From the NCBI GenBank assembly GCA_905171695.1, contig LR991653.1, forward strand, positions 1,228,957 to 1,292,956: DNA of 64,000 nt, in the 5' to 3' direction. The notes under the pieces were generated by a model, which was given only the letters and a program-made list of their open reading frames with translations, had not been told where the DNA came from and ran no database searches. The position numbers and the translations under genes are program-made. This document shows, piece after piece, positions 6,417-62,195 of this stretch (position 1 is its first letter; each line of letters starts with the position of its first letter). The DNA comes from Candidatus Methanoperedenaceae archaeon GB37 (GTDB lineage Archaea > Halobacteriota > Methanosarcinia > Methanosarcinales > EX4572-44).

Positions 6417-6417
6417 A

Positions 6418-7422: not shown

Positions 7423-7436
7423 CCTCACACCGCCAT

Positions 7437-10428: not shown

Positions 10429-10469
10429 TTACGGAAAAATATTTATATTATAATGCCTAATTGACCATT

Positions 10470-11867: not shown

Positions 11868-12097
11868 GAAATTGGGAATTTGATATGGTGGATATCCATC
11901 TAAATAGTGATAGCGATAATTATTTTGAGCTTTAATCTGTTTATATCTTTTACTATTCCACTTCTCGGACCTGTCCACATAAAATTATAAGTGCGGGAGA
12001 CCATCTTTTATTTATGCTGAGGGTAAGGGAAATTGTTGAAGAGTTGAAGGGTGTTTGAGAGGAGTAAGGTGCCTTTTGAGGTTAAGATTTTCGGTAT

Positions 12098-35152: not shown

Positions 35153-35448
35153 TAATGCTATAGCAAGATGAACGGCCCAATCTGGAATTTAGATCACCTT
35201 CTCACCGGGGTTGTAAAGTTATTGGGTGTTGGCGTTGTTTCGGCCTGGTTATGTATTTAAGTCTCATGTCTGCTTTTCTGGGTCTGGACACACGAAAGAA
35301 CTCAGAGTTTTGGCATAACACCCAACAAGTTGACAGTCCCTTCTCACCGAAAACTATAAAGAGTAGATATCTCATAATAATCATAATAGTGTAATGTCTG
35401 TAAGGTTTTGCAGTCCTTATAAATGTTTGCATTGGAGAGGAAAAAATA

Positions 35449-36477: not shown

Positions 36478-36484
36478 AAATATT

Positions 36485-38531: not shown

Positions 38532-38548
38532 ACCACCGGGGGCGCCTC

Positions 38549-39718: not shown

Positions 39719-39728
39719 GGGGGGACAC

Positions 39729-40856: not shown

Positions 40857-41078
40857 TAAAGTTTGCTTTAATTGAGTCAAATTACGGCAGCGCACCCAAT
40901 CGCAGAGCTGCGGGACATGATTCGTGCCACTGCTTAGTCGTCGGGTTAGCAATTGAACCATCAGTGTTCATAATGCACCAACGCTTAAAAAATTTCGTCC
41001 TTAACTTTGTCCCAACACAGCAAAACTGGGGGGTATAGTAATCAAATTAACGAAATGGAGAAGTCAAAGGTAATATCC

Positions 41079-42554: not shown

Positions 42555-42839
42555 AGACAGATTAACCAAACATAGAAAGTTAATAAGGAGACCGATTAGA
42601 AATGGGTTATATTAAAAATAACGAGCAGCGTCGTGAAGCTAAGTAATTGGAGAGATTAGAAAGGAATGAAGAACTTTCAAATCGACATTTTTTTGGGTAC
42701 TGCTGTATTGTACCATCTCCTTAATGTCAATGCGGTGATGAAGAAGCGAATAGAGCCGCTAAGATCCTGCGGAATAGTATTACTCGGTGTCAAAGTGGCA
42801 GAGGAATACAACAGATAAGCCAATTAGGGAGGTGAAAAA

Positions 42840-46004: not shown

Positions 46005-46008
46005 TTTC

Positions 46009-47973
46009 ATGTCACGGGAAATAAGTGGAAAGACTCTGATTGTCCGTACTGTCATATTAATGATGATATTGTTAACAAACCTTGTTTTGACTGAGGCATC
46101 TGAGCTTGGAACCAATTTGGTGAATAATCCCTCTTTTGAAGAAGGATGGAATATCACTTCAGATTCGCCATCAGGCTGGACAAAGCCCGATCCACATTGG
46201 AAAGGGACTCTTTCTACAGATAGTTATACTGGTAACTATAGTTACAGTTTAACTACTAAAACCACGGGTGGTTGGAGTGGAGTGCTCAGCAATTCAATAG
46301 AAGTTAAAGAGAATAAAACATATTTTGTAAGAACTCACATGAAATGTGAGAATGTTAAAGCATCTCATATTAAAATAGAAAAATTCGATTCAGATAATAA
46401 TGAGTGGCTTGAATTGATACAAGTACCCGGCGGACAGGATGGCACTTTTGGCTGGACAGAATACTATGCTTTTATCGAAATCCCTGAAGATATTACCAAA
46501 ATCCGCTTCATCCTAAACGCCGGCTACGTTGACAACAAAGATGCTGGCAATGCTACGACGTGGTTTGATGATATTGAGTTTATTGACCCTGTGGTGGTAA
46601 ATCCTGTAAGATACGAGACTGAACTCTCTTTAAACATGGGTGAGAGCTGGCAGATTAGCGATGATCTTGCTCTCTTTCTTGATGATGTGACACGGGAGAG
46701 CGTGGTTATGTCTTTAATTTACAGAGGTTATCCTCTTGTGAGTCAGGTGGTGAATAAGGGTGAATACACTACATTCGAATACGGGGGTGATGAGCTTCTG
46801 GTCTTCAGGCTTGATGATGTTTTCAACGCCACAGGTGCAGAAAAAGCGTGGCTTGGAGAGGTGCTGGCGGGGAGTGTCTCTTCTGATGATGTTGTGGCGC
46901 CAAAGCTTGATATTACTGTAAGCTCGCCTGAGTATGCTTATAAGGGGGAGGTTGTTCCTGTGAATGTGAGCGTGGTGAACCGTGGGGAGCAGGGGTTCAG
47001 TGGTGGTGTTGAGGTTGTTGTTACGCTTGGTGGAGGGCATAGGGTCTCTCTTGGCGAGCACCTGGTGCTTGCTCCTGGTGAGGGGAATAAGTGGCTTCTT
47101 GCGGTGGATGCACCTGAAAAGCCTGATGAATACACGGTTGTTGGCGTGCTCAGGACAGGGTATGCGAGTATCAGGGACGAAGACGTGGTGGTGGTTAAGG
47201 TGCTGAATCCTGCCGTTACAACCTTCTCCCTTGGTGTTAGAGAGGCGGGTGGGATCAGGGGTCAGCTGACTCTGGGCTCGGCTTTTGCTGATGAGCTTGT
47301 TGACTGGGATCTGCCAGTGAGGGTAGATGTTTACCTGATACTGGAGAAGGGTAAGAAGCCTGTGTACTCGGAGGAGGTGGTTGCGCGGGGCAGGAGTACT
47401 GATTTCTTCATCCCTTATGAGAGATTCTATCAGGGTGATGGGAGATACGTTGTTGTTGCACGTGCTGGAGGAGTGGAGGATAATGAGTATCTTGAGTTGG
47501 TGGGAGTGGACTTTGAGTACGATCCTTCCGAGGAGAGTCTGCCACCTACCATCGATGGTGAAGGTCTTCAAACACAGTTGTTGCTGCTATTCATGGCTCT
47601 CGTTGCAGTATTAACTATTAGAAACCAGTTTTATAGAAATATCATGCCATTAAGGCTTGATCTGGCTTTCATGGGCGGTGGGACAGCGGTTACAGTTCTG
47701 GCTGTACTTTTAAGCCTGAACGACTCTACCATTAGGGGAATAATCCTTTTGAGTGCAGGTATTTTCTTATTTATCCTGAGAAGATACGATGCACGGATGA
47801 GTGGAGTCTTTTCAAAGCACTCTCATCTGCATGATCTTTCAAGCCTCATAGTTATCTTTATGGCAGGCGGATTTTTGATAAACAGTGTTTCGTTAAATAC
47901 AGCCAATCTGCTTGTGATCGGAATACCTGTGGCATACGGGTTTGCACTCGGTCTCAGTGAGAGAATGAGGTGA
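46009..47973 (+). CDS. Surface protein: signal/anchor, CBM-like jelly-roll domain, CARDB-like domain, C-terminal block of about five TM helices
   Basis: 'NLVNNPSFEEGWN...GWTK...WFDDIEF' (CBM4/9-like). 'PEYAYKGEVVPVNVSVVNRGEQ' (CARDB-like). Hydrophobic segments from 'LLLLFMALVAVLTI' onward. Confidence 0.6.
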   Translation: MSREISGKTLIVRTVILMMILLTNLVLTEASELGTNLVNNPSFEEGWNITSDSPSGWTKPDPHWKGTLSTDSYTGNYSYSLTTKTTGGWSGVLSNSIEVKENKTYFVRTHMKCENVKASHIKIEKFDSDNNEWLELIQVPGGQDGTFGWTEYYAFIEIPEDITKIRFILNAGYVDNKDAGNATTWFDDIEFIDPVVVNPVRYETELSLNMGESWQISDDLALFLDDVTRESVVMSLIYRGYPLVSQVVNKGEYTTFEYGGDELLVFRLDDVFNATGAEKAWLGEVLAGSVSSDDVVAPKLDITVSSPEYAYKGEVVPVNVSVVNRGEQGFSGGVEVVVTLGGGHRVSLGEHLVLAPGEGNKWLLAVDAPEKPDEYTVVGVLRTGYASIRDEDVVVVKVLNPAVTTFSLGVREAGGIRGQLTLGSAFADELVDWDLPVRVDVYLILEKGKKPVYSEEVVARGRSTDFFIPYERFYQGDGRYVVVARAGGVEDNEYLELVGVDFEYDPSEESLPPTIDGEGLQTQLLLLFMALVAVLTIRNQFYRNIMPLRLDLAFMGGGTAVTVLAVLLSLNDSTIRGIILLSAGIFLFILRRYDARMSGVFSKHSHLHDLSSLIVIFMAGGFLINSVSLNTANLLVIGIPVAYGFALGLSERMR

Positions 47974-48033
47974 TGCTCAGGGGTTTCATCTCTTGAATAA
48001 TGTTTATATCTCTTTGGAGGTATAGGATGTAAT

Positions 48034-48564
48034 ATGGAGAAGAGAGCAGAGGTTGTAATACATGGCAGGGTTCAGAAAGCTGGTTTCAGGGATTTGATTG
48101 ATGAAGCGGCTTTTAATCTGAATCTCAATGGGTATGTTAAGAATGATCGAGATGGTACGGTGCGGGTTACATGTGAAGGAAGGGATGAGAGCATCAGGGA
48201 GTTTCTTGAAGAGATCAATATACAGCAGTACCCGATTCGCGTGGAAAAGATCGATGTAGAATACCTTGAACCAACCCACGAGTTCAAGACATTCGAGATC
48301 ATCAGAGAAGAAGACATGACCGCAGCGACCTTTGAGAGAATGGACATGGCTGCAAGGTATATGAGAGAGATGAACACCAATCTCAGCCAGAAGATCGATG
48401 GACTCGGAGAGAGACTCGAGAACAAAATGGACGAGAATACAGTGAAGATTACAGGAGAGATTCATGCTCTACGAGATGATTTCAGGTCTCTTTTTGATCA
48501 GAGGCTTTCAAGAGTTGAGAATGATCTGGCTGAAATAAAAGCAAAGATTGCTGCGCTTAACTGA
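48034..48564 (+). CDS. Acylphosphatase-like domain fused to a C-terminal coiled coil
   Basis: 'VVIHGRVQKAGFRDL' and 'GYVKNDRDGTVRV' match the acylphosphatase P-loop Arg and Asn. Residues from about 95 to 176 are heptad-like and charged. Confidence 0.6.
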   Translation: MEKRAEVVIHGRVQKAGFRDLIDEAAFNLNLNGYVKNDRDGTVRVTCEGRDESIREFLEEINIQQYPIRVEKIDVEYLEPTHEFKTFEIIREEDMTAATFERMDMAARYMREMNTNLSQKIDGLGERLENKMDENTVKITGEIHALRDDFRSLFDQRLSRVENDLAEIKAKIAALN

Positions 48565-48631
48565 TTCTGCCGTTACCCTGTTTAGATGCAGGTTTTGTGC
48601 ATGAAAACGATGTGAAGAGTGGTGAACGTGT

Positions 48632-49108
48632 ATGGTAGAAGAGTCATCGGGTAAAAAGGTTGAGATTGCTGAGAAGTGGCCTCTATCCAATTACCCGATA
48701 TTACTGGCGTTGATACTTCTCGTTGCAACAGCTATATCATTGGGGGTTGGGGAGAGTGAGGCTTATGCGAATCAGCTGGCTATCTATGCATATTTTTTGC
48801 TGGCTGTCGGTGTTGCAGTACGGTTCTTTGAGCTTGTACTGCCTGAGAGGGTGGTTCAGAGACTGAAGATAAATAGTTCCAAGATAAAAAGTGGGAGGGA
48901 TGTTTCAAAGAGTGCGGATAAACTTGATTTTTTTACTGATGTCACGAGGAATGTTCTCTTTTCAATGCTTGCTTTCTTCATTATAGCTATCAGTTATGGT
49001 GCTTTGGTTGATTGGTTCTTTGTGAGGGGATTTGTTAAGGAGTTGGGTTATGTTATTGTGGTATTTCTCGTGTTGCATCTTCTTTTGAAGTATGGGGTTA
49101 AAATGTGA
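48632..49108 (+). CDS. Small membrane protein (about four TM helices), function unknown
   Basis: Hydrophobic segments; its stop overlaps the GTG start of the next gene (atgtga at 49103-49108). Confidence 0.5.
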   Translation: MVEESSGKKVEIAEKWPLSNYPILLALILLVATAISLGVGESEAYANQLAIYAYFLLAVGVAVRFFELVLPERVVQRLKINSSKIKSGRDVSKSADKLDFFTDVTRNVLFSMLAFFIIAISYGALVDWFFVRGFVKELGYVIVVFLVLHLLLKYGVKM

Positions 49109-51117
49109 AGATCTTCAGTTTGAAGAGTTATGGTATATCCTGTTTTGCAGTATTTTTCTATCTTTTCATCTCTTTTCTCATTCTATTTTATTTTAAAGGA
49201 AATTATATATTAACGTTGGATATGGTCTTCCCGTGTAAAAATTCTTTTGAAGAGTACTTTTATGGTTTCAGTCCTCCTGTTTGGGGCGGAACTCTGCCCA
49301 TACACGCAACTATGAAGTTCTCCAGCATAATGCCTGCATGGTTGCTGCAGAGAATTTACCTCTCTTTAATCATACTTCTCGCTGGAATCTCTATGCATCT
49401 CCTGGTGAAGACAGAGTCTTCCGCTCCAAAGTACTTTGCAGGCATCCTTTATGCCGTGAATCCGTTTGTCTATGTGAGATTTCTTGCAGGGCACTGGTTC
49501 ATCCTGCTTGCCTATTCAATCATGCCCTTTGCAGTTAAATCCTTTATCGATCTGCTTGAAGACGGGAAGAGGAGGAATATTTTAAAGTCCCTCTTCCTGA
49601 CGACCCTCGTAGGTGCCATCAATTCCCATATTCTTGTCCTCTTGTCTCTATTATACGTGGTTTTGGCGGCTTTTAAGTTGTACCATGTAAAGAGCGAAGT
49701 GGGTGCTGTAAAAAGACTGCTTGCCTCTCTATCCATACTTGTAGTGCTATACCTCTTGCTCAACCTATACTGGCTCCTCCCTCTACTCACTGCAGACGCA
49801 ACGTTGATACACCAGATATCAGAGGCTGACATGTATCTATTCGCCACAAAGACCTCAGCCTTCAATGCGGTCTTCACGATCGCAAGCATGTATGGGTTCT
49901 GGCGAGGCGGGTATCTCTATCCACAGGACTTTATTCCCCACTGGTATCTCTTCTTTCTCTTCATCCTTTTCTTGGCAGTGCACGGATTTATCAGCAATTG
50001 CAGGAGTAAGACTCTCAGCCTGCCTGTGAGATCCTTTGCAGTAGTTGCAGTGATTGCAGTGGTCCTGGGTTCTGGTGTGTATGGACCGTTCCATTCATTC
50101 TTTGAACTCTTATTTAACAACATATTCTTCTTTAGGGGTCTGAGAGATTCTCACAAGTTTGCCGCGCTTCTCGCCTTTTCATACTCATACCTCGGGGCGC
50201 TTGGGGTCTATGAATTTGAAAAGATAGCGCGCAGCGCCAGTATCACTGATTCATACAGGAAAATAGGTGCGCTGGCAGTCGTTCTCTTGGCACTGATAAC
50301 ACCTTTTCTTTACTCTTTCACGATCTTCAACGGCTTCTGGGGACAGATGAATACTACGGACTACCCGGACGACTGGTATCAGGTTAATGAATTACTTAAT
50401 CGGGATGATGAAGATTTTAACGTGCTTTTCCTCCCATGGCACGCATACATGGACTTCAAGTGGATTCCTAATACCCAGAAGAGGGTTGTGAATCCTGCTT
50501 CAGGCTTCTTCGAGAAGCCTGTGATTCAAGGGTGGAATATGGAGTCAGGGGGCATATACTCCCAATCCACCAACCCGGCTCAGCGCTACGTAGAATCTTT
50601 GCTGTATAATAGAAGTAATATAACCAGTTTTGGTGAGAAGATGGTTATTTTAGATGTGAAATACGTGCTTTTGACAAAGGAAGTAGATTACGATGAATAT
50701 TTCTTTCTGTTCAACCAGACTGACTTAGAACTGATAAAAGAGACTGAAAATTTCTACGTGTTCAAAAATAATCATACTGTCTCTCGATTTTACCGTTCGC
50801 CTACCCCTGTCACTCTTGAATCCTGGAGAGAACCCGATTTTGTCGAGTCTCTAACACCTATCAGCTACAAAGAAAACTCTCCTGTTAAATTCGATGTGCG
50901 AGGAGAGAGTGGCTTCATCGTCTTCGTTCCACCGAACCTGGACTCTCGATACTGGGAATTCGAGGGCACGCCCTCTCATCTGGACGGCTTTTATGCGGTT
51001 TATCCGGCTGGTGAGGGATCCATTTACTACACTCGGTTCAATATATGCCTCATCGGGTATCTTCTCTCACTTCTCACGCTGATAGGTATTTTAGGAACTC
51101 TCAATCATTGGATCTGA
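49105..51117 (+). CDS. Polytopic membrane protein paralogous to 42840..46004; GT-C-like candidate
   Basis: Shares 'LDMVFP' (against GDLIFP), 'LRDSHKFAA' (against FRDPNKWEG), 'DDWYQVNELLNRDDEDFNVLFLP' (against EEYYMVNNWLANQNGDFKVSWLP) and a C-terminal TM anchor. Confidence 0.55.
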   Translation: MKIFSLKSYGISCFAVFFYLFISFLILFYFKGNYILTLDMVFPCKNSFEEYFYGFSPPVWGGTLPIHATMKFSSIMPAWLLQRIYLSLIILLAGISMHLLVKTESSAPKYFAGILYAVNPFVYVRFLAGHWFILLAYSIMPFAVKSFIDLLEDGKRRNILKSLFLTTLVGAINSHILVLLSLLYVVLAAFKLYHVKSEVGAVKRLLASLSILVVLYLLLNLYWLLPLLTADATLIHQISEADMYLFATKTSAFNAVFTIASMYGFWRGGYLYPQDFIPHWYLFFLFILFLAVHGFISNCRSKTLSLPVRSFAVVAVIAVVLGSGVYGPFHSFFELLFNNIFFFRGLRDSHKFAALLAFSYSYLGALGVYEFEKIARSASITDSYRKIGALAVVLLALITPFLYSFTIFNGFWGQMNTTDYPDDWYQVNELLNRDDEDFNVLFLPWHAYMDFKWIPNTQKRVVNPASGFFEKPVIQGWNMESGGIYSQSTNPAQRYVESLLYNRSNITSFGEKMVILDVKYVLLTKEVDYDEYFFLFNQTDLELIKETENFYVFKNNHTVSRFYRSPTPVTLESWREPDFVESLTPISYKENSPVKFDVRGESGFIVFVPPNLDSRYWEFEGTPSHLDGFYAVYPAGEGSIYYTRFNICLIGYLLSLLTLIGILGTLNHWI

Positions 51118-51880
51118 GTGCCCCGAAGAAGAGGCACTCGTCTCTCGGTATCAGAGGGATCTCTTGGGCCTCTCCATCCCCCCGGTCTCTCATGTATAGC
51201 CCTGTGCCTCTTGCAATGACCGCTGGCACTCCTTCGCTTGCCTCTCCCATCAGGAGTTGTGCAGCGCTTGCAAGGTTGTCTGCGATCGCTCTCTGCGTGA
51301 TTCTGAGTGGCTTGCCATAGAGATCTCTTCTGCCACGGGCATCTTCCACTGGTTCTATCCCACTGCATCCAAGTGCAACCCCGATCGTTCCGAGTCGGAG
51401 GGGCTGTGTGCGACTATCACTTATGATAACAGCACACCTGCACCCATAGTGCTCTTCAAGAGCGCTTCGTATCTCTCTAGCACTCGCTGTTGGGTTGAGG
51501 GGCATCAACGTGACATGTCCCTCTGGCGCGTTCGAGGAGTCAATCCCGGTATTCGGTGATAGAACGCCCCGTGTGATCGTGAGCACGACGCCCGGTACAC
51601 CGCCGATTATCTCGTCAGCCTCTCTCAGTATGAGCTCCATCTCGCGTGGTTCGATCATGTACTTCTCAGCGAGCCTCAAAGCCTCCTCGGTGGGCGTTAC
51701 GCTGCTCAGGTCAACGAGTCGCCCCTCGGTCGTTGCAACAGCCGACTCTGCGATTATGAAGATGTCGCCATCCTCTGGTGTGATGCGCTCCTTCTCCATC
51801 GATCCTATGAGAGCGTCAGAGATCCTGTCCTCTGGGGTTAGGATTGGTGTTCTCACCGGGATAAAGACCAATTGCTGCAT
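51101..51880 (-). CDS. cofE: Coenzyme F420-0:L-glutamate ligase
   Basis: 'PEDGDIFIIAESAVATTEGR' and 'AVIISDSRTQPLRLGTIGVALG'. Confidence 0.85.
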   Translation of the reverse strand: MQQLVFIPVRTPILTPEDRISDALIGSMEKERITPEDGDIFIIAESAVATTEGRLVDLSSVTPTEEALRLAEKYMIEPREMELILREADEIIGGVPGVVLTITRGVLSPNTGIDSSNAPEGHVTLMPLNPTASAREIRSALEEHYGCRCAVIISDSRTQPLRLGTIGVALGCSGIEPVEDARGRRDLYGKPLRITQRAIADNLASAAQLLMGEASEGVPAVIARGTGLYMRDRGDGEAQEIPLIPRDECLFFGALRSND

Positions 51881-51886
51881 AAATCC

Positions 51887-53122
51887 TTAGAGGTACTCTT
51901 TTAATCGTAGAATTGCACAGTACTCTCCACACATGCTGCAGATGCCACCAGTCTCCCTGCGCATCTCCTCTGGTCTTCGAGGCTCGATCGCATGCGAGAG
52001 CTGCCCACTCCAATCGAGCATACTTCTCTTAACTGCAAGTCTGCGATCCCTATCTGATGGCATGTACTTGATGCTGTCACCGATATGGGCTGCTATCCTG
52101 AAAGCCGTTAAACCTTCTCTCACGTCTTCCACGCCTGGGAGGCAGATGTGCTCGGCAGGTGTTACTGCACAGAGATAATCAGCCCCGGCTCCACTTGCGA
52201 GAGCTGCCCCGATACTTGCCGCAATATGGTCATATCCAACCGCCACATCGGTTGGCAAGGGGCCTGCAACGAAGAGTGGGCGATCCGCGACCTCTTTATG
52301 GTATCGCACAGACTCTGGTATGAGTGCTGGCGCCACATGCCCGCCCATACCCTCGATTATCACCTGCACACCTGCTTTGTTTGCCTCCTCTGCAAGCCGT
52401 GCATTGAGCTCCAGCTCCTCTCTCTGCAAGCAATCGGGCATGTCATGAACACATCCGCTTCGAAGACTGTTTCCGAGAGATAATACCACATCCCTCTCAC
52501 GAAGGATCTCGAGTATCTCGTCGAAGTGCTCAAGAAACGGGTTATCTCTATTATTCTTCAGCATGCAAAGACTCGTGAGACTACCACCCTTCGATACCAT
52601 GGTAAGGATTCGTCTGCTCTTCTTCAACTTCAGGACCAGCTCTCGCGTGATTGTATGGATCACGATCGAGCTCACACCAGACCTGACATCCTCCTCTATC
52701 CGCGAGAGTATATCCCTATCTCTCATCGTCCATCCATTCTCAGCCACACACTGATAAATCGGAACTGTTGTGAGTGGAATCGTGGTGCTGGCGAGGATCT
52801 GGCGTCGTATCTCCTCGAGATCTCCACCCATCGAGAGATCTGTTATGGTATCTGCAGAATAAGCCTCTGCAACCCTTGCCTTCTCAACCTCGAGATCGGT
52901 CTCTCTCGATGCTGTGGATGTTCCGATGTTGACATTGACCTTTGTCCGAAGCCCCTTCCCAATGCCGCAGACGCCTCTCCTGCCTCCCTTGCGAGTCATG
53001 ATGACGGTTCTGCCACTTGCAATATCAGATCTGAGGAGTTCTGGCTCGATCTCTTCTTCCATTGCAACTCTCTTCATCTCTCCTGTAACGATGCCATCGG
53101 TTGCAGACTCTATCTGTGTCAA
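51887..53122 (-). CDS. thiC: Phosphomethylpyrimidine synthase
   Basis: 'TITDLSMGGD', 'IEGMGGH' and the C-terminal 'CSMCGEYCA'. Start taken at the TTG at 53122 ((M)TQIESATDGIVTGEM). The tracked extension to 53305 runs through a tRNA gene. Confidence 0.85.
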   Translation of the reverse strand: MTQIESATDGIVTGEMKRVAMEEEIEPELLRSDIASGRTVIMTRKGGRRGVCGIGKGLRTKVNVNIGTSTASRETDLEVEKARVAEAYSADTITDLSMGGDLEEIRRQILASTTIPLTTVPIYQCVAENGWTMRDRDILSRIEEDVRSGVSSIVIHTITRELVLKLKKSRRILTMVSKGGSLTSLCMLKNNRDNPFLEHFDEILEILRERDVVLSLGNSLRSGCVHDMPDCLQREELELNARLAEEANKAGVQVIIEGMGGHVAPALIPESVRYHKEVADRPLFVAGPLPTDVAVGYDHIAASIGAALASGAGADYLCAVTPAEHICLPGVEDVREGLTAFRIAAHIGDSIKYMPSDRDRRLAVKRSMLDWSGQLSHAIEPRRPEEMRRETGGICSMCGEYCAILRLKEYL

Positions 53123-53209
53123 GATGAACGCTCCATAACTCTTCCAAACCTGCTGTTTTATTACGATACGCTTAAATTCGATGAAAGCGATCTCTTCGGC
53201 TGTCACAGA

Positions 53210-53283
<74 letters not shown>

Positions 53284-53311
53284 TCATGGATAGTTCGCCT
53301 TTCAATCACTT

Positions 53312-54481
53312 TTATCTCTTCACCACCTTCTTCACAAGTTCAGCCAGGCGATCCGAGTTCAGTTCCTGCTTCCTCTCCCGACACTCTTTTATGACGTCGA
53401 CGAGTTCGCATAACTGATCCCGCGAGAGGTCGTGGTATCCCATGTGCTTCAGCACTCCAAGGAGCGCTCTTCTCCCGGTATGCTTTCCAAGTATGAAGCT
53501 CCGCTCTGCACCTATCAGCTCTGGCGGATAAGCCTCGTAAGTGATAGGATTCTCGAGTATGGCCGCGACGTGTATGCCTGACTCGTGTGCAAATGCATTT
53601 CTACCAACTATCGACTTGTTCGATGCAACCTTCACACCCGAGCACTCCTCAACGAGTCTGGAGAGGCTTGTGAGCCTCGATAGATCGTACTTATCGATCC
53701 CGTGCTCGAGGCGGAGTGCAAGGAGAACCTCTTCGAGCGCTGCATTACCACTCCGCTCACCTATGCCGTTTACCGTGGTATGCAACTGTTTCACTCCCGC
53801 TTCTGCTGCTGTGATCGTGTTTGCAGTTGCCATCCCGAGATCGTCGTGGCAGTGAATGCATAACTCGCTCTTTCTCACACTATCTTTGATCTCACTGACG
53901 AGGTACTCTGTGGTGGCTGGCGTGAGAATGCCGACCGTGTCTGCAATGCTCACATAATCTGCGCCACGCGCCTCTGCCGCGAGGAATATATCCTTCAACC
54001 TGGGTATGGGGGTACGGGTTGCATCCTCTGCTGCAAACCGAACCACGACACCATGCGACTTGGCATACTCAAGGGTATCAAGCGCTCTCTCCCGCACGGT
54101 CTCATACCTCGAGTGATACTTGTACTCGATATGGATATCTGAGGTTGCGATGAAGATACTGATGATGTCAACGTCACAATCGAGTGCTATCTCCACATCC
54201 TCTCTCTTCGAACGTGCAAGAGAGCAGATCTTGGCATCAAGTCCGAGCTGTGCGACTCGCTTTATGGTCTCCTTCTCAACACTGGAGACGACCGGAAAAC
54301 CTGCTTCGATGATCTCAACACCGATCTCGTCAAGCCGCTCTGCAAGCCTGATCTTCTCATCCATTGTGAACGCAGCCCCAGGAGTCTGCTCACCATCCCG
54401 GAGCGTAACATCACAGATCTCAACCTCAGGTGGCCTTCGCCCGATGGAATCATAGTAGATATTCTTTGAGAGGAGATCCAT
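53312..54481 (-). CDS. aksA: Homocitrate synthase-type enzyme (short LeuA/NifV/AksA family, no regulatory domain); probable coenzyme B biosynthesis
   Basis: 'ICDVTLRDGEQTPG' and 'HCHDDLGMATANT'. 389 aa, so it lacks the LeuA C-terminal domain. Confidence 0.7.
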   Translation of the reverse strand: MDLLSKNIYYDSIGRRPPEVEICDVTLRDGEQTPGAAFTMDEKIRLAERLDEIGVEIIEAGFPVVSSVEKETIKRVAQLGLDAKICSLARSKREDVEIALDCDVDIISIFIATSDIHIEYKYHSRYETVRERALDTLEYAKSHGVVVRFAAEDATRTPIPRLKDIFLAAEARGADYVSIADTVGILTPATTEYLVSEIKDSVRKSELCIHCHDDLGMATANTITAAEAGVKQLHTTVNGIGERSGNAALEEVLLALRLEHGIDKYDLSRLTSLSRLVEECSGVKVASNKSIVGRNAFAHESGIHVAAILENPITYEAYPPELIGAERSFILGKHTGRRALLGVLKHMGYHDLSRDQLCELVDVIKECRERKQELNSDRLAELVKKVVKR

Positions 54482-54512
54482 AAGAGGAGAACTACAAGGA
54501 TAACTGGATACT

Positions 54513-55016
54513 TCAACGCTCGAAGAGTTCGGTATCGATCACACTATCCAGCACGTAATCAAAATCGATATGATCATACCAGCCTGCTCGCTCAAAGATC
54601 CCCATGAAACAGAGGCCTATAACAAGCCCATTGCCACCAGTTATCGTTTCAACGAGCCTCGCCACTTCAACTGGGTCGACACCGATCTTCGGCATCGCAA
54701 GCCCGCCGAGTACCGCGACGGTATCGCCATGAAAATCAACCTCGCGTCCAAGCTGCATCCCCTGTGGAGTTGGGACGATCTCCCGTGCATGCTCGAGATC
54801 AAGACCAGCGACAAAGACCATCTCCTTTCCAGAGTCTCTGAGAGCATACGCCAGAAGCTCGGCAAAGGGGGTGCAGAAACCGATCGAACCGACGAAGACT
54901 ATCCGCTTAGAATCCTTCACAAGCTCCCTGAAGGGTATCATCATGCCGGCAAGTGCAGGCTGCTTCGAAACAGATCTCATCACAACAATCCTCCAAGACC
55001 AGCCATCTCCTATCAC
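54513..55016 (-). CDS. Conserved archaeal hypothetical protein (possibly DUF2124/COG4029-like)
   Basis: 'RIVFVGSIGFCTPFAELLAYALRD'. Family name recalled from memory and unverified. The start could be an internal Met. Confidence 0.4.
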   Translation of the reverse strand: MIGDGWSWRIVVMRSVSKQPALAGMMIPFRELVKDSKRIVFVGSIGFCTPFAELLAYALRDSGKEMVFVAGLDLEHAREIVPTPQGMQLGREVDFHGDTVAVLGGLAMPKIGVDPVEVARLVETITGGNGLVIGLCFMGIFERAGWYDHIDFDYVLDSVIDTELFER

Positions 55017-55143
55017 ACCATCAATATATGAAGTTATCGAAAAAGATGGATTACGATCTATTCCAGAGTGCCGAGAAAACCAGTAAGTATATCAAGCAGA
55101 AAAACAACTCGGAAGATTATAACATTGAAGCAGGTATGTAACT

Positions 55144-55848
55144 ATGAAGTTGCTCGTAAGCCCGATTAATGTCGAGGAGGCACAGATCGCTGTAGAAGGC
55201 GGTGCAGATATCATCGATGTGAAGAATCCGAGGGAAGGGTCGCTCGGTGCGAACTTTCCATGGGTCATCAAGAGTGTCAGGGATGCTGTGAAAGAACCAT
55301 TGAGCGCTACAATTGGCGATTTTAACTTCAGACCAGGGACTGCTTCTCTCGCTGCACTCGGCGCTGCCGTCTCCGGCGCAGATTATATAAAAATTGGATT
55401 ATTTGATATTCAGACGCGAGAACAGGCATATAAAATGGCAGAGAGCGTTACAAAATCAGTTAAAGAATACGATCCAAATAAGAAGGTAGTAATAGCTGGA
55501 TATTCTGATTATAAGCGAATAAATTCCATATCGGTATTTGAACTGCCCGCTGTAGCAGGCGATGTCGGCGCCGACGTGGTGATGATGGATACAGGCATCA
55601 AAGACGGGAGTTCAACCTTTGAGTTCCTGAGAGATGAAGAGATCAGCGAGTTCGTTGACCTCGCGCGCCAGCACGGGATTCAAACAGCGCTTGCAGGATC
55701 TCTCAGATTCGAGGACATCGATGCACTCAACGAGATAAATCCTGACATAATCGGTGTGCGTGGATGCGTCTGTGGCGGCGATCGCAGCGCTTCAATCAAG
55801 CTCGAACTTGTGAGAGAACTTAAAAACTCCTTGAACGGATCCCAATAG
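55144..55848 (+). CDS. mfnB: (5-formylfuran-3-yl)methyl phosphate synthase (methanofuran biosynthesis)
   Basis: 'MKLLVSPINVEEAQIAVEGGADIIDVKNPREGSLGA', a DUF556/MfnB pattern. Confidence 0.8.
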   Translation: MKLLVSPINVEEAQIAVEGGADIIDVKNPREGSLGANFPWVIKSVRDAVKEPLSATIGDFNFRPGTASLAALGAAVSGADYIKIGLFDIQTREQAYKMAESVTKSVKEYDPNKKVVIAGYSDYKRINSISVFELPAVAGDVGADVVMMDTGIKDGSSTFEFLRDEEISEFVDLARQHGIQTALAGSLRFEDIDALNEINPDIIGVRGCVCGGDRSASIKLELVRELKNSLNGSQ

Positions 55849-55885: not shown

Positions 55886-57544
55886 TTAAGAGGGGCATCC
55901 GTTCTCCTTCCAGCCACGTAGCGCGTAGTATCTATCGAGTTCTTCTTCAAATCCAGCTGGTTTCATTATCTCTGGCAGCGTGTCATCCTCACGGTTGAAG
56001 CCTCGCTTGCAGTTGAACTCTCGTTCCATCTGAACGATCCTACTCCCCAGTCTCTGCATGTATTCCTCGCTAGCGTCTCCTGTAATCTTTGACAAGACCT
56101 TCAGGTAGTCTTCGAGTGTGTAGAACCTGACTGAGAACTTACAGAGCGAGATCGAGTCGAGTACCGCGTTTCTGTTCTCGTTGTATATTACCCGCTCTGC
56201 CTTTCCACTTATATTGTTTCTCCCAGGGTCTCCGTACTCTTCGATGTACTCCATGCTGTAGAGGTGATCGGCGCCGCGGTTCGATACCGCGTAGGAGAGC
56301 CCCTGCCCTGCTGCCCCACGAGCGTCGTGTCCAGGGAGGTCCATGCCCTTCACGGTGTAGGATGGGACTCTGCATCTCTCTGCGAAAGCTCTGGCGCCGC
56401 AAGCAAGTTCTGCACCGATCCCCTCCCTTTTAGCTATCAATTCAATCACTTCGTGCACCTTCTCGCCATCACCCCACTCGATCTCGTACTGAACGCGCCC
56501 ATTCTCACTTGCCTCCATCAAAGTCGCGATTGCAGCACCTGTCGATAGCGTGTCAAGCCCATATCTGTTGCAGAGGTAATTTGATTTTATGATGTCGTCA
56601 AGGTCGTTTACACAGAGGTTCGATCCGAAGCTCATCAGTGTCTCGTACTCTGGCCCCTCTGTTATTATCCCGTGCTTCTTGCTCTTTGTCACTCGCTTAC
56701 ATGCAATGAGACAACTGTGACAGGTGCTCCGGTTGATCGTGTACTCGCGGAGTGCCTCGCCGTTTATCATCTTAGCATCTTCGTAGACGGTTGTTGAGTA
56801 GTTTCTGGTTGGGAGTGCATTGTTATCATTTGCTACCTGAAGAATGCTCGATGTTCCCATCAACTTCAGACCTGCAACACCGTCAACGACCTTCTTCCAG
56901 AGGCCTGCCTCGATATCACGATACTGGTCTGATGGAATCGATGTGTTACCGGTTGCAACGATCGCTTTCAGGTTCTTGCTGCCCATCACAGCGCCGAGTC
57001 CGCCACGACCGAACGCTCGATGGAGCTGTGTCATGATATTTGCAAAGTAGACACCTCGCTCCCCCGCGGTGCCTATGACAAGGATATTTCGAAAGCGCAC
57101 CTTGCACTCCATCTTCAATCTCATCGTGGTGCTGAAGACGTCAGATCCCCAGAGGTGGGAAGCGTCTCGAAACTCGACACCACTCTCATCGATCCATAGA
57201 TAGAGTGGTGAGGATGCTCGTCCCTCGATTATCACACCACTGTAGCCTGTGCGGAGAAGTTCGCACCCGAAGTTCCCACCCGCGTTGGAGCTGAAGATAG
57301 TCTCTGTGAGTGGTGAGATGCTCGTTGTGCTGTGGCGAGCAGAGAATGGAATTGAGGAGCCTGTGAGCGCACCTGGGGTGAATATCAGTTTGTTCTCCTG
57401 GTGGAGAGGCTCTACGCTCGGCTCAACCTCCCTCGTGAAGAGAGCTACACCGAGACCTCTGCCACCAATAAACGACGAAACCTCAGGATCGACCTCTTCA
57501 ACATCACCAGTCTCTCTCCTAAGATTCACACGCAGGATCTTCAT
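55886..57544 (-). CDS. aor: Aldehyde:ferredoxin oxidoreductase family (tungstopterin) enzyme
   Basis: 'MKILRVNL...GGRGLG' N-terminus, [4Fe-4S] ligand motif 'CHSCLIAC' and 'GLDTLSTG'. Start taken at 57544. Confidence 0.85.
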   Translation of the reverse strand: MKILRVNLRRETGDVEEVDPEVSSFIGGRGLGVALFTREVEPSVEPLHQENKLIFTPGALTGSSIPFSARHSTTSISPLTETIFSSNAGGNFGCELLRTGYSGVIIEGRASSPLYLWIDESGVEFRDASHLWGSDVFSTTMRLKMECKVRFRNILVIGTAGERGVYFANIMTQLHRAFGRGGLGAVMGSKNLKAIVATGNTSIPSDQYRDIEAGLWKKVVDGVAGLKLMGTSSILQVANDNNALPTRNYSTTVYEDAKMINGEALREYTINRSTCHSCLIACKRVTKSKKHGIITEGPEYETLMSFGSNLCVNDLDDIIKSNYLCNRYGLDTLSTGAAIATLMEASENGRVQYEIEWGDGEKVHEVIELIAKREGIGAELACGARAFAERCRVPSYTVKGMDLPGHDARGAAGQGLSYAVSNRGADHLYSMEYIEEYGDPGRNNISGKAERVIYNENRNAVLDSISLCKFSVRFYTLEDYLKVLSKITGDASEEYMQRLGSRIVQMEREFNCKRGFNREDDTLPEIMKPAGFEEELDRYYALRGWKENGCPS

Positions 57545-57604
57545 AGTATACTCAGGTTTGGGTGTTGAATTATATATGCTTATTCTATTCAACGGGGATG
57601 TCAA

Positions 57605-57933
57605 CTCGTTTGGGTGTTATCTCAGAGCCGAGATTTTTCCAGAATATAAGCTTATTGGTTGTGTTCTCTTCTTTGGTCTCAGACGTTTAAAATATATCAA
57701 AATATATCAGAGATAAATAAATATTTTTAAAAAATATTGTATCTTTATAACGGTTTATCATGATCAAAGCAAAAAACTTAAATACAAACAGCATCTCATA
57801 TCCACCATTGAGGATTGTGATGGTGAATGATGGTACACAGAAACGAGTACTCTATAGGATGAGTATTGAGTATTCTGTGAATTGTGTACCAGAACCTGAG
57901 ACATTCTCAAAAAATATGGAGGAACGAATATAA
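57605..57933. promoter_or_regulatory. Divergent AT-rich promoter/leader region between aor and mcrB
   Basis: Tandem aaatatatca x2 (57691-57710), near-palindrome aatatttttaaaaaatatt (about 57719-57738), TATA-like ctttataa (57743-57750), and GGAGG 10 nt upstream of the mcrB ATG. No transcription start can be assigned. Confidence 0.4.
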
Positions 57934-59337
57934 ATGGCCTATCTAACAGAAAAAATAGATCTATACGGGGACAATGGTAAGGTGCTGGAATCAGACATTC
58001 CACTCGAAGCTGTAACACCAGTGCAGAACCCCGCTGTAAGAGAGCTTGCAAGCATCTTCAAGCGTTCCGTTGCAGTGAACCTTGGAGGAGCACAGAAAGC
58101 CCTCTCAACTGGACACTATGCCAACGAGTATATACACTTTCCAGATATACCGAACAAAGATAAACTTGGAATAAAGAGTTCTCCCGGTGGCAAATACCCA
58201 CCAAAGTCGGTTAAAGTACGAACCATGGACCTGCCACTCGTAGACGATGCAGATGACATCGCGGCACGGCTCAAAGAGAGACTCCAGGTCAACCCTGACG
58301 ATGGAACAGAAGTCAGAGTAATGAAGAAGGGGAACGTGCTCTACGTCAAGATCTCGGAGCAGCTTGCAAATACAGGTGTCGAGTACACAACGGCACTCAC
58401 AACAACTGCACAGGCAATGACCGATCTTGTGATGGAGAAGTACGATCTCGACTTCCACGCTTCCCCACTCGTCCACTGTGCATTCTATGGACGATACCCA
58501 CAGACATACGAGTTCATGGGCGGAAACGTGATCTCACTACTTGCCGCAAGCTGTGCAAATGAGGGACCAGGATTCGCCATGCGAAACATTATGGCAAACC
58601 ATATTGTGGCAGCAACAAGGAAGAGAACTCTGGAAGCTGTCGCTCTGAGCTCAACGCTGGAAGCCATTGGTCATGTTGAGATGGGTGATGCAATCGGCAG
58701 GTGGAGACGGTGGCAGGCACTCGTGCATGCATGCCAGGGACTGAACGCAAACAATGTGGTCTACGACCTTGTGAAGGAAGCCGGCCATGGCTGCACAGGT
58801 GATGTTGTTGCAGCAACCGTCGGAAGAGCACTTGAAGATGGAATCATATCTGTAAAGAAGACACTGCCATCTGGCTACAAGTTCTACACAGCAAACGATC
58901 CCTCGATGTGGAACGCCTATGTATGCGCAGGACTCGTTGCAGCAGTTATAGTCAACCAAGGTGCGGCACGAGCGGCACAGGGTGTATCATCAACACTGCT
59001 CTACTTCAACGACCTGATCGAGCACGAGACAGGACTACCCCACGCAGGCTATGGTGATGGCATGGGTAATGGTGTAAGCTTCTCGTTCTTCAGCCACGCT
59101 ATATATGGTGGCGGAAGCCCCGGTATCTTCAGCGGCAACCACATCGTGACCCGCCACTCCAAGGGATTCGCAATACCCGTCATCGCAGCGGCGGTATCTC
59201 TCGATAGCGGCACAGCGGTCTATGGGCCTGAGGCAACATCAGGACTCGTAGGAGATATCTTTGGCGAAGTGGACCTTATACGCAGGCCAATGGAAGCGAT
59301 CGCAAGTGCAGCAGCAGAGATAAAGGACAAGTTCTGA
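57934..59337 (+). CDS. mcrB: Methyl/alkyl-coenzyme M reductase beta subunit
   Basis: 'GRYPQTYEFMGGN', 'NQGAARAAQGVSSTLLYFNDLIEHETGLP' and 'FFSHAIYGGGSPGIFSGNHIVTRHSKGFAIP'. Confidence 0.9.
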   Translation: MAYLTEKIDLYGDNGKVLESDIPLEAVTPVQNPAVRELASIFKRSVAVNLGGAQKALSTGHYANEYIHFPDIPNKDKLGIKSSPGGKYPPKSVKVRTMDLPLVDDADDIAARLKERLQVNPDDGTEVRVMKKGNVLYVKISEQLANTGVEYTTALTTTAQAMTDLVMEKYDLDFHASPLVHCAFYGRYPQTYEFMGGNVISLLAASCANEGPGFAMRNIMANHIVAATRKRTLEAVALSSTLEAIGHVEMGDAIGRWRRWQALVHACQGLNANNVVYDLVKEAGHGCTGDVVAATVGRALEDGIISVKKTLPSGYKFYTANDPSMWNAYVCAGLVAAVIVNQGAARAAQGVSSTLLYFNDLIEHETGLPHAGYGDGMGNGVSFSFFSHAIYGGGSPGIFSGNHIVTRHSKGFAIPVIAAAVSLDSGTAVYGPEATSGLVGDIFGEVDLIRRPMEAIASAAAEIKDKF

Positions 59338-59351
59338 AGAGGTGAAGAAGA

Positions 59352-60152
59352 ATGGTATATCAAAGACAATTTCTCCCAGCAGACGATAGAGTCACAAAAA
59401 ACAGAAAGAAAGTGGTGGATCCAAGCGTTAAATTGGAGAAGATCCGAACACTTTCCGATAAGGACTTCCTGACCCTGATAGGACACCGACATCTCGGTGA
59501 AGCATACAGGTCAGTGAACCCACCACTTGCCGAGATCGGCGAGCCAGAGGATCCAATAAGAGAGCTTGTACCACCTACCGAAGGTGCAAAGGCAGGAGAC
59601 AGGGTGTGCACAATCATCATGACAGACTCGGTCTACAACCCACCGATCGCACACTACACCAGGGCATGGATGTACCACAATAGATTCAGAGGTATCGACA
59701 ACGGTGTCTACTCTGGACGAGTGACACTTGAGATGCGTGAGCGTGACCTTGAAGAGGCATGCAGGACCCTCTTCGAGACAGAGATCTGCGATGCGTCAAG
59801 GGATCAAGTCAGACAGTACACCTGCACAGGCCACAGCTGCAGGCTTGACCCAGACGGTATGATGTTTGATCCCATAGAGCGATGCATTATGTCAGGTGGT
59901 AACGTTGTCTACCAGAAAGACAGCTTCGGAAATCCTGTGGATACACCAATCAATATGGGCAAACCATTATCAGAGGAAGAACTCATAGAGAGAACGGTTG
60001 TATACAGGACGGATCGTGGTGAGCCGATGACACGCGAGGGCGATCCAGGAGCGCCAGATGAAGAGGTCAGAGAAGCACTCCAGTGGAGCCGCAGAATCCA
60101 GTGGCTCAGAATGCTCGGGAACATGGTTCCTGACAAGATAAAGGGAATGTAA
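59352..60152 (+). CDS. mcrG: Methyl/alkyl-coenzyme M reductase gamma subunit
   Basis: 'GAKAGDRV', 'MRERDLEE' and 'GHSCRLDPDGMMFD'. Confidence 0.9.
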   Translation: MVYQRQFLPADDRVTKNRKKVVDPSVKLEKIRTLSDKDFLTLIGHRHLGEAYRSVNPPLAEIGEPEDPIRELVPPTEGAKAGDRVCTIIMTDSVYNPPIAHYTRAWMYHNRFRGIDNGVYSGRVTLEMRERDLEEACRTLFETEICDASRDQVRQYTCTGHSCRLDPDGMMFDPIERCIMSGGNVVYQKDSFGNPVDTPINMGKPLSEEELIERTVVYRTDRGEPMTREGDPGAPDEEVREALQWSRRIQWLRMLGNMVPDKIKGM

Positions 60153-60166
60153 AGAGGTGAAATGAA

Positions 60167-61954
60167 ATGGTAAAATATCCAAAGCAATTGTTCTTAGAGA
60201 GCAAGAACTCAAAGATGAACTCGATAGAGATGAAATATGGTCAGGATCCAGCGATCAACAGAGCCGAGTTCCACGTATACGGTGGCGTAAGGCAGAGTAA
60301 GAGGAAATCAGAGGCATGGGAAGCAGCAAAGAGAATCACAAAAGAGCGCGGCATACCCAACTACAACCCCGATCTCCACCTGAAGGGCGCTCAGATGGGA
60401 CAGAAGGTCCTGCAGACCTACAGGATAACAGGTCTTGACCGCGAGTGGGCAGGTGGCGAGGACACACCCGCACACAAGGGATGGAAGCCAGGCACAGATA
60501 TCGCCGGGCTTGAAATGGATGACCTCAACTACGAGAACAACCCTGCAATGCAGCAGTGCTACGACGATATGCGAAGAACCGCCATCAATGGCCTTAGCAT
60601 TGCACACGAAACGATAGAGCGCAGATTCGGAAAAGAGGTCACGCCTGAGACGATCAACCTCTACTTTGAGATGCTCAACCACAACATCGGCGCAGGTGCG
60701 ATCATGATGGAGCACACAGCAGAGACAAACCCAGAACTGGTGAAAGACAGCTATGCCAAGTGCTTCACAGGAAACGATGAACTGGCAGACGCACTCGACC
60801 AGCGCTTCTTAATCGACATCAACAAGATGTTTCCGAAGTACCAGGCGGATCAGATCAAGGCAGAGGTTGGAGACAGAATCTTCCAGGTGGCACGCATACC
60901 CACGATGGCAGTACGCACATCAGACGGTGGACTATCACGTGCATGGGTAGGACAGCAGGCAAGCCTTGCCTTCCTCTGTGCATATGATATTCCAGCAGGC
61001 GATGCCGTTACAAGCGACTTCGTCTTCACAATCAAGCACGGTGATGTGGTCTTCATGGGAACACAGCTACCGTACAGGCGTGCCCAGCGGAACAACTCGG
61101 CAGGCGGTATTGCACTCGGATACTACTCAGACTGCAACCAGACAAGCCGCACGCCAGAGGCACTCGAAGGGCTTGACGGCGGAATTGACCCAGTAAAGGT
61201 CATAGTCGAAGCACTCACACCAGGATGCGTCATAACAGACCAGGGATGGCTGCACAACTATTTGGCAGGCGGATCATCAGGCTGGTCAAACTACATAATC
61301 TCAGTCTACACCGATGAGGTGCTCGAAGACTACGGATACCACGGCGCAATCTATGCAATGGACAAATGGAAGTGCGGAGTCGGCGAGGTCCCGAACACCT
61401 ACGAGAACATGATGACAATCGCTGAAGAGGTCTCACGATGGAGTCAGAAGAACTATGACGAGTACCCAGGACTTATGGAGGCACACTTCGGCGGCAGCCA
61501 GAGATACTCGATACAAGCAGCAGCATCTGGTGCGGCAGTCGGCGCAATGACAGGCGACCCTGACCTCGGCAACGCAGCGTGGCACTACAACACACCACTC
61601 TGCAAGGAACACTACCTCAGACTCGGATTCTACGGACACGACCTACAGGATCAGCAGAACATGGGACACACATACTCCTATCGCTCAGACCAAGGCATAC
61701 CATACGAACTCAAAGGGCCAAACTATCCAGACTTTGCAATGAACGTCGGGCACATGGGCGGATACATCGGAATCATCGCAGGAGCAGCACACGCACGTGG
61801 TGCAGCATACTCGACAAACCCGATCATCAAGGCAGCCTTTGCAGACCCCAACCTCCAGTTCGACTTCAGGTACCCACGCAGAGAGTTCGGAATCGGTGGA
61901 CTACGCCAGTTCATGCCAGCAGGCGAACGCGACGCAGTAATCCCACCACATTAA
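60167..61954 (+). CDS. mcrA: Methyl/alkyl-coenzyme M reductase alpha subunit, divergent
   Basis: 'GKEVTPETINLYFEMLNH', 'HFGGSQR', 'LGFYGHDLQDQ', 'GPNYPDFAMNVGH' and 'PAGERD'. Confidence 0.9.
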   Translation: MVKYPKQLFLESKNSKMNSIEMKYGQDPAINRAEFHVYGGVRQSKRKSEAWEAAKRITKERGIPNYNPDLHLKGAQMGQKVLQTYRITGLDREWAGGEDTPAHKGWKPGTDIAGLEMDDLNYENNPAMQQCYDDMRRTAINGLSIAHETIERRFGKEVTPETINLYFEMLNHNIGAGAIMMEHTAETNPELVKDSYAKCFTGNDELADALDQRFLIDINKMFPKYQADQIKAEVGDRIFQVARIPTMAVRTSDGGLSRAWVGQQASLAFLCAYDIPAGDAVTSDFVFTIKHGDVVFMGTQLPYRRAQRNNSAGGIALGYYSDCNQTSRTPEALEGLDGGIDPVKVIVEALTPGCVITDQGWLHNYLAGGSSGWSNYIISVYTDEVLEDYGYHGAIYAMDKWKCGVGEVPNTYENMMTIAEEVSRWSQKNYDEYPGLMEAHFGGSQRYSIQAAASGAAVGAMTGDPDLGNAAWHYNTPLCKEHYLRLGFYGHDLQDQQNMGHTYSYRSDQGIPYELKGPNYPDFAMNVGHMGGYIGIIAGAAHARGAAYSTNPIIKAAFADPNLQFDFRYPRREFGIGGLRQFMPAGERDAVIPPH

Positions 61955-61978
61955 ACAAACAAGACAAAAGAGAATACA

Positions 61979-62012
61979 GAGAGCAGAAAAACCTGCTCTC
62001 CTCTCACTTTTT
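61979..62012 (+). terminator. Hairpin plus T-run downstream of mcrA
   Basis: gagagcag-aaaaac-ctgctctc (perfect 8-bp stem, 61979-62000), followed by ttttt at 62008-62012. Confidence 0.5.
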
Positions 62013-62045
62013 CTATTACCACACCTATTTGATCTTTACTCATCG

Positions 62046-62195
62046 TTAGACCCTCTCGCCATTTTTCAACTGATTTTCCATAAAAATCTCAAACTGCCTT
62101 GAAATAATCAACCCTCTTTCTTTACAATATTTTCTGAATTTTTCATATAGTTTAGCATTAGCTTTTAAAGTTATATTTTTAGTTTTGTTTTTCAT
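62046..62195 (-). CDS. 49-aa ribbon-helix-helix (CopG/Arc-like) DNA-binding protein; below the ORF-track length cut-off
   Basis: My own translation is MKNKTKNITLKANAKLYEKFRKYCKERGLIISRQFEIFMENQLKNGERV. The pattern is a beta-strand (NITLKA), helix, G-x-S turn, helix. Confidence 0.6.
   Translation of the reverse strand: MKNKTKNITLKANAKLYEKFRKYCKERGLIISRQFEIFMENQLKNGERV

Follow-up and report, generated by a model that had tools for sequence, protein, structure and literature searches.

Ethyl-coenzyme M reductase and its setting

Among enzymes that activate multi-carbon alkanes anaerobically, ethyl-coenzyme M reductase (ECR) was the first to be structurally defined; it belongs to a divergent branch of the methyl-coenzyme M reductases (MCRs). 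Here, an MCR-type operon is described in a 64,000-nucleotide stretch of DNA from Candidatus (Ca.) Methanoperedenaceae archaeon GB37 (contig LR991653.1, positions 1,228,957 to 1,292,956; hereafter the window, to which all coordinates refer). The protein in question is the MCR alpha subunit (McrA) encoded by the open reading frame (ORF) 60167-61954 on the plus strand. A preliminary description, aligned by eye, had proposed that this protein keeps most of the modified-residue positions of McrA while residues lining its substrate cavity are changed.

The closest described system is that of Ca. Ethanoperedens thermophilum, an archaeon with ethane as its sole growth substrate that forms ethyl-coenzyme M (ethyl-CoM) and expresses mcr most highly among its catabolic genes (PMC7175092). 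Its closed genome of 1.92 Mb has a GC content of 46.5% and encodes a single MCR with the three subunit genes on one operon; the alpha subunit is 69% identical to its counterpart in Ca. Argoarchaeum (PMC7175092).

The following structural details are taken from reviews and from later papers, both from the group behind the structure and from others. With its (alpha-beta-gamma)2 architecture, ECR exceeds canonical MCR by about 20 kDa, and the extra mass is due to insertions in all subunits (three in alpha and one each in beta and gamma; PMC9081873, PMC9118554). The loop alpha 367-374 with Trp373 displaces the F430 cofactor and tilts its ring by 11.4 degrees, and the volume of the active site is enlarged enough to accommodate ethane (PMC9081873). 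F430 receives a hydrogen bond from Asn375 and is clamped by Tyr376 and Phe441 (PMC9081873). The nickel is coordinated by a methionine instead of a glutamine, and the cofactor is a dimethyl-F430 (PMC9081873, PMC9118554). A hydrophobic, water-free gas tunnel of 33 Å, confirmed by xenon gassing, runs to the active site from an entrance that is built by ethanotroph-specific insertions (PMC9118554). The residues that line the inner end of the tunnel are methyl-Ile, N2-methyl-His, methyl-Cys, and methyl-Gln (PMC9118554, PMC8674909). A tunnel of this kind is absent from the enzymes of methanogens and of the anaerobic methanotrophic archaea ANME-1 and ANME-2 (PMC9118554, PMC12413448).

Identity and organization of the operon

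ORF 60167-61954 encodes the alpha subunit of ECR from Ca. Ethanoperedens thermophilum, an assignment to which we give a probability of roughly 97%. In a search of all PDB chains, the 595-residue product aligned from 1-595 to 1-595 with the “Ethyl-Coenzyme M reductase alpha subunit” of 7b1s_A (also 7b2c) and was identical at 595 of 595 positions. The next-best chains were MCRs of methanogens, ANME-2, and ANME-1, with E-values from 1e-159 to 1e-121. An identical alpha sequence (P0240) is also present in a collection of 15 billion proteins. The other two subunits match equally well: the beta subunit (mcrB-type gene, 57934-59337, plus strand, 467 residues) is identical to 7b1s_B at 467/467 positions, and the gamma subunit (mcrG-type gene, 59352-60152, plus strand, 266 residues) to 7b1s_C at 266/266. 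The operon is therefore the mcr/ecr locus of Ca. Ethanoperedens thermophilum or of an essentially identical strain. The GC content of the window (46.1%) and the 69% identity of its McrA to that of an Argoarchaeum locus (L003) stand beside the published values of 46.5% and 69%. ECR alpha is already known from published work together with its structure, cofactor, and modifications, and the structure, pocket volume, and mass-spectrometric modification map of this exact protein are published.

McrA carries the Pfam domains MCR_alpha_N (PF02745, scoring 307.4 bits where the cut-off is 27) and MCR_alpha (PF02249, 103 bits, cut-off 25), McrB carries MCR_beta_N and MCR_beta, and McrG carries MCR_gamma; all matches far exceed the curated cut-offs. 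The genes are arranged in the order B-G-A with 14-bp gaps between mcrB and mcrG and between mcrG and mcrA. A GGAGGA ribosome-binding site (57918-57923, plus strand) is positioned 10 bp ahead of the mcrB start codon at the end of an AT-rich upstream region (57605-57933). The mcr operon of Methanothermobacter marburgensis (M. marburgensis) includes mcrD and mcrC; neither gene was found between mcrB, mcrG, and mcrA in the window (57934-61954). Three further mechanical ORFs within mcrA (61579-62049, plus strand; 60308-60715 and 60850-61095, minus strand) were rejected as out-of-frame or antisense shadows, the gene itself being proven by its identity to the crystallized protein.

Residues kept and changed in the active site

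The window McrA was aligned with MAFFT to 120 homologs, to the McrA translations of three loci (L001-L003), and to P0064, a McrA of 550 residues that served as numbering reference, as its positions 1-550 correspond one to one to those of the MCR I chain of M. marburgensis (3pot_A/5a0y). Two samples were compared: 35 distinct full-length McrA of the GoM-Arc1 clade, 67-95% identical to the window protein overall, and 114 McrA from outside this clade, mainly of Methanobacteriales but also of Methanococcales, Methanothermus, Methanosuratincola, and of Korarchaeia and Archaeoglobi type. A single-protein scan of GTDB genomes returned four close loci only, owing to its very specific patterns. HMMER, run exhaustively against 1.84 billion representatives of 50%-identity clusters, yielded about a dozen full-length clusters, none closer than 44% identity.

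The window McrA is 47% identical to that of M. marburgensis. Seven positions are kept: His257, Arg271, Tyr333, Gln400, Gly445, Asp450, and Asn481 correspond to H291, R305, Y376, Q445, G490, D495, and N526, respectively. All seven had been named in the preliminary description, whose by-eye registers proved correct throughout: the motifs it quoted all lie within ORF 60167-61954, the computed alignment places them at the same positions, and the spacing of 45 residues between Gln400 and Gly445 is the same in both proteins. The changes it listed recur in the alignment as well, namely Phe330 to Trp373, Tyr446 to His491, Cys452 to Gln497, and the rewriting of RARGENEPGG to RAQRNNSAGG, in which R273, G274, E275, and E277 become Q307, R308, N309, and S311. 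The one-residue insertion it had seen near Phe330 is Ser370. Further changes are Y478 to F523 and Q485 to M530 and, read by position in the alignment block, N477 to D522 and E487 to G532. Two substitutions had been missed, Gln147 to Met181 at the position of the axial nickel ligand (60707-60709, plus strand) and Ala312 to Cys354 (61226-61228, plus strand).

Two segments of the gene each hold several of these positions. In the active-site loop AGGSSGWSNYI (alpha 367-377; 61265-61297, plus strand), the inserted Ser370 is followed by Trp373, which replaces Phe330, and by Asn375, Tyr376 (the counterpart of Tyr333), and Ile377. In the motif GHDLQDQQ (alpha 490-497; 61634-61657, plus strand), Gly490 marks the thioglycine site, His491 replaces Tyr446, Asp495 is retained, and Gln497 replaces Cys452.

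The pattern of conservation separates the two samples. Trp373, His491, Cys354, and the Ser370 insertion are present in 35/35 GoM-Arc1-clade McrA and in 0/114 others, so that the substitutions at positions 373 and 491 are not found in canonical McrA, including those of methanogens. Outside the clade, Q147, V328, F330, T331, Q332, and Y446 are invariant (114/114), and C452 is kept in 108/114. Other positions vary within the clade (n=35): 24 M and 11 Q at window position 181, 24 I and 11 V at 377, 19 Q and 16 M at 497, and 18 N and 17 H at 526. Since the changed positions are fixed in 35 clade members of 67-95% identity and unaltered in 114 canonical McrA, they point to selection rather than drift, and an explanation by drift was rejected on this pattern (35/35 versus 0/114).

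Posttranslational modifications

Five of the six modified-residue sites of M. marburgensis McrA are kept at the level of sequence, among them the core positions for N1-methyl-His (H291; 61037-61039, plus strand), 5-methyl-Arg (R305, followed by AQRNNS in place of ARGENE; 61079-61099, plus strand), and thioglycine (G490). The site of 2-(S)-methylglutamine, Gln445 (61499-61501, plus strand), is also retained. The claim that most modified positions are kept holds for the sequence, but only in part for the native enzyme, in which four are reported as modified: N1-methyl-His, 5-methyl-Arg, 2-methyl-Gln, and thioglycine are listed as present in 7B1S, and didehydro-Asp as absent (Table 1, PMC9081873). 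Asp495 is accordingly kept but reported as unmodified. The methylated Gln445 lines the tunnel (PMC8674909).

The S-methyl-Cys of ECR is placed elsewhere than the methanogenic one (PMC12413448), which fits the replacement of Cys452 by Gln497 and the clade-specific Cys354. Two positions that had been described simply as changed are themselves probable new modification sites in ECR, and Ile377 is located inside the segment GGSSGWSNYIISVYTD of the preliminary description, where it was not recognized as a new site. As judged from sequence, the residues that would carry the ECR-specific modifications (His491, Ile377, and Cys354) are present and clade-specific, the modification state itself being reported for the native enzyme only. 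We take Cys354 to be the probable, relocated S-methyl-Cys site from its clade conservation and the residue number reportedly given by Hahn et al. 2021. On the same grounds, Ile377 is presumably the 3-methylisoleucine site and His491 (35/35 versus 0/114) presumably the N2-methylhistidine site.

Insertions and the gas tunnel

Relative to M. marburgensis McrA, the alpha subunit contains insertions of 21 residues (92-112), 8 residues (333-340), one residue (Ser370), and two residues (402-403), and its N-terminal part is longer by about 13 residues. The preliminary description had noticed the first as an insertion of about 20 residues, and it had overlooked those at 333-340 and 402-403 and the N-terminal extension. 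In independent phmmer alignments to the McrA of M. wolfeii and M. formicicus, the positions of the large insertions were unchanged. The 21-residue insertion REWAGGEDTPAHKGWKPGTDI (60440-60502, plus strand) is a gap in all McrA from outside the GoM-Arc1 clade and may be a surface loop that contributes to the entrance of the ethane tunnel, a role that has been described for the ethanotroph-specific insertions (PMC9118554). The 8-residue insertion LEGLDGGI (61163-61186, plus strand) is present in 35/35 GoM-Arc1-clade McrA.

The partner subunits are extended as well. In McrB, a 24-residue insertion specific to the ethane enzyme (beta 71-94; 58144-58215, plus strand) is evident from an offset of +24 relative to 3pot_B and from a 24-residue gap in the McrB of two related loci, L005 and L006, that are discussed below. 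Relative to the same two loci, the gamma subunit has extra residues at about 228-240 (60033-60071, plus strand). Together with the alpha insertions of 21, 8, and 2 residues, these agree with the insertion set of ECR, whose part in building a tunnel is known from the literature (PMC9118554).

Proposed reaction

Sequence identity, residue mapping, and clade-specific conservation were computed here, and the cofactor, the modifications, the tunnel, and the pocket widening are taken from published structures and mass spectrometry. Ca. Ethanoperedens thermophilum is a thermophilic member of the GoM-Arc1 clade and oxidizes ethane in syntrophy with a sulfate reducer. The alpha subunit assembles with the upstream-encoded beta and gamma subunits into an (alpha-beta-gamma)2 nickel-F430 enzyme, which runs the MCR reaction in reverse on ethane and converts ethane and the heterodisulfide CoM-S-S-CoB of coenzymes M and B into ethyl-S-CoM and HS-CoB. 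The GGSSGW loop with the Ser370 insertion and Trp373 shifts and tilts the dimethylated F430 and widens the chamber, and Met181 takes over the axial coordination of the nickel from Gln. The methylated Cys, Ile, His, and Gln line the inner end of the ethane tunnel. A heterologous expression system for this ECR is available in Methanococcus maripaludis (PMC9584954). That the tunnel geometry sets the specificity for ethane, and the catalytic turnover in vitro, are still a matter of inference in the literature.

Alternative explanations

No sequence feature of the operon speaks against its identity as ECR. Two caveats apply. The residue numbers 354, 377, and 491 for the ECR-specific modifications are probable assignments supported by conservation; the numbers of these three sites were not found in the reviews and related papers searched. 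According to a review, the enzymatic activity of the alkane-fixing MCR homologs still awaited validation in vitro as of 2022 (PMC9118554).

A broader alkyl-CoM reductase that also accepts propane, butane, or longer alkanes, like the enzymes of Syntrophoarchaeum or Methanoliparia, could likewise be expected in the divergent, non-canonical MCR branch to which the window McrA belongs. This reading draws on OFV68676.1 of Ca. Syntrophoarchaeum caldarius (P0121 cluster), which is 42% identical to the window McrA and shares with it the GGSSGW loop, including the single inserted residue and the Trp that replaces Phe330, as well as the Met axial ligand and the Gln at the methyl-Gln position (PMC9118554). 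On the other hand, OFV68676.1 has Ala for the thioglycine Gly, Ser for His491, Gly for Cys354, and Trp at the Met480 position, and lacks Ile377 and the 21-residue insertion. The account of this protein in the review by Lemaire and Wagner agrees with our alignment (PMC9118554). When various short-chain alkanes were offered, ethyl-CoM alone was detected, and the ethane oxidizers use no other alkane (PMC9118554, PMC9081873). The tunnel is also narrow, and its loops are absent in the propane, butane, and long-chain enzymes (PMC9118554). A broader substrate range is thus very improbable.

An ordinary methane-forming or methane-oxidizing MCR, whose unusual residues would be neutral drift of the lineage with no consequence for the substrate, would account for the two Pfam McrA domains, the 47% identity to M. 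marburgensis McrA, and the retention of most cofactor-binding and modification positions, but is effectively refuted by the fixed substitutions described above and by the purification and crystallization of the identical protein as an ethane-specialized enzyme. Its pocket is widened, and it has a gas tunnel of a kind that ANME-2 and methanogen MCRs lack (PMC12413448). The culture, moreover, grows on ethane only and makes ethyl-CoM (PMC7175092). ECR remains the assignment to which all of these data lead, and the changed substrate pocket that had been proposed from the sequence is borne out by the solved structure of the exact protein, with its shifted Trp373 loop, its F430 tilt of 11.4 degrees, and its enlarged active site (PMC9081873).

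Neighboring genes

A tungsten-type aldehyde:ferredoxin oxidoreductase (AOR; AFOR_N and AFOR_C domains) is encoded divergently on the minus strand (55886-57604), 330 bp from mcrB. The pairing of AOR and mcrB is conserved in a related locus from a Guaymas metagenome-assembled genome (L001, 83% identity); no AOR gene was seen in the flanking sequence retrieved for the Argoarchaeum loci, L003 among them. For Ca. Ethanoperedens thermophilum, AOR has been proposed to act in the conversion of the ethyl to the acetyl group, and its aor genes are found close to methanogenesis genes (Hahn et al. 2020, PMC7175092). The position of the AOR gene next to mcr matches this proposal, which is still unproven.

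Further upstream (51101-55848), the window encodes CofE (F420 gamma-glutamyl ligase), a ThiC-family radical SAM protein, a homocitrate-synthase-like protein, a DUF2124 protein, and MfnB, the 4-(hydroxymethyl)-2-furancarboxaldehyde phosphate (4-HFC-P) synthase of methanofuran synthesis. The homocitrate-synthase-like protein near mcr is possibly AksA of coenzyme B synthesis. The mechanical ThiC ORF overlaps at its 5′ end with a tRNA-Val (53210-53283, plus strand), so that the true start of the gene is probably located further in.

No tetrapyrrole methylase gene was found among the 47 larger ORFs of the window that were scanned. A SirC-like NAD_binding_7 protein of the tetrapyrrole/F430 precursor branch is encoded at 25752-26402 (plus strand), and CcmB and an ABC ATPase, resembling the CcmA/CcmB pair of cytochrome c maturation, at 32140-33623 (minus strand). 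The SirC-like and Ccm genes fit a syntrophic alkane oxidizer that depends on F430 and uses multihaem cytochromes.

The region 34300-51100 is a surface-glycan cluster and stands out by its low GC content (0.34-0.39 between about 34 and 46 kb, compared with about 0.49 elsewhere), forming an island. It encodes an epimerase, a nucleotidyl transferase, a radical SAM/SPASM protein, two GT4 glycosyltransferases, a CBM_4_9 protein, and a GT-C enzyme, along with a B12-binding radical SAM protein (41007-42554) and an ORF of 1054 residues with no Pfam match (42840-46004). Radical SAM proteins of the B12-dependent type could install C-methylations, but the context of the glycan island points to sugar chemistry.

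The bacterial-type queuosine genes tgt (full-length PF01702) and queA (PF02547) lie side by side, and a TGT of the archaeosine type, which has PUA and C2 domains, is also encoded; the regions concerned are 5304-7506 and 26408-28225 (both minus strand). QueA is unusual in archaea, so a horizontal acquisition is possible. Two DDE transposase ORFs (468 residues on the plus strand and 240 residues on the minus strand) with a GC content of 0.38-0.39 occupy 10461-13055 and are probably insertion-sequence debris.

Comparison with known systems

MCR I of M. marburgensis (5A0Y/3POT) belongs to the same fold family and has the same set of subunits, and the seven positions from His257 to Asn481 are conserved between the two enzymes. 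It differs by Phe330, Tyr446, Cys452, and Gln147, has none of the alpha insertions of the window protein, contains no gas tunnel, and uses an unmodified F430.

The divergent MCR (ECR) of Ca. Argoarchaeum ethanivorans (L003, P0004 cluster) is 69% identical to the window protein. It shares the Ser370 insertion, Trp373, His491, and Cys354, carries the full 21-residue and 8-residue alpha insertions, and has, like the window, a beta subunit of 467 residues with the beta insertion. It differs in retaining the canonical Gln as axial ligand where the window protein has Met181, and it has Val for Ile377, Met for Gln497, and His for Asn526.

A third GoM-Arc1-type subclade is represented by the McrA P0003, P0005, and P0006 and by the loci L005 (3869-10842) and L006 (321-7459). 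Its alpha subunits of 573-580 residues are 69-74% identical to the window McrA and keep Trp373, His491, Cys354, Ile377, and Met181. They have only 8 of the 21 inserted residues, the beta subunit of 443 residues is without the 24-residue insertion, and the gamma insertion is shorter than that of the window. The loops that are missing or shortened are those reported as the tunnel entrance of ECR. In both loci, the genes directly after mcrBGA are that of a PF00590 tetrapyrrole methylase, which is a candidate for the methylation of F430, and cfbE; in L006, a ycaO gene is positioned ahead of these two, and in L005, a cfbD-like gene comes after them. A literature search found no papers citing accessions of this short-insertion subclade. 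That it combines the full ECR-type pocket with the absence of most loops of the published tunnel entrance is an unlikely, though conceivable, reading. If the subclade is undescribed, the widened pocket and the tunnel mouth would have evolved separately, and ethane or another small alkane would enter the pocket by a different or shorter path.

Outside the GoM-Arc1 clade, the cluster of OFV68676.1 is the only other lineage with both the GGSSGW loop and the Met ligand among the full-length cluster representatives aligned. Because both features are common to OFV68676.1 and ECR, the pocket-widening loop probably predates the specialization on ethane or was exchanged between lineages.

With ECR of Ca. 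Ethanoperedens thermophilum itself (PDB 7B1S, 7B2C; Hahn et al., Science 2021), the window agrees in everything tested and shows no difference. ECR illustrates how an enzyme of methanogenesis has been retuned to a larger substrate: its pocket is wider, its cofactor is modified, and it has a dedicated gas tunnel as well as new modifications. This makes it relevant to hydrocarbon cycling in the seabed and to the engineering of alkane-to-fuel routes.

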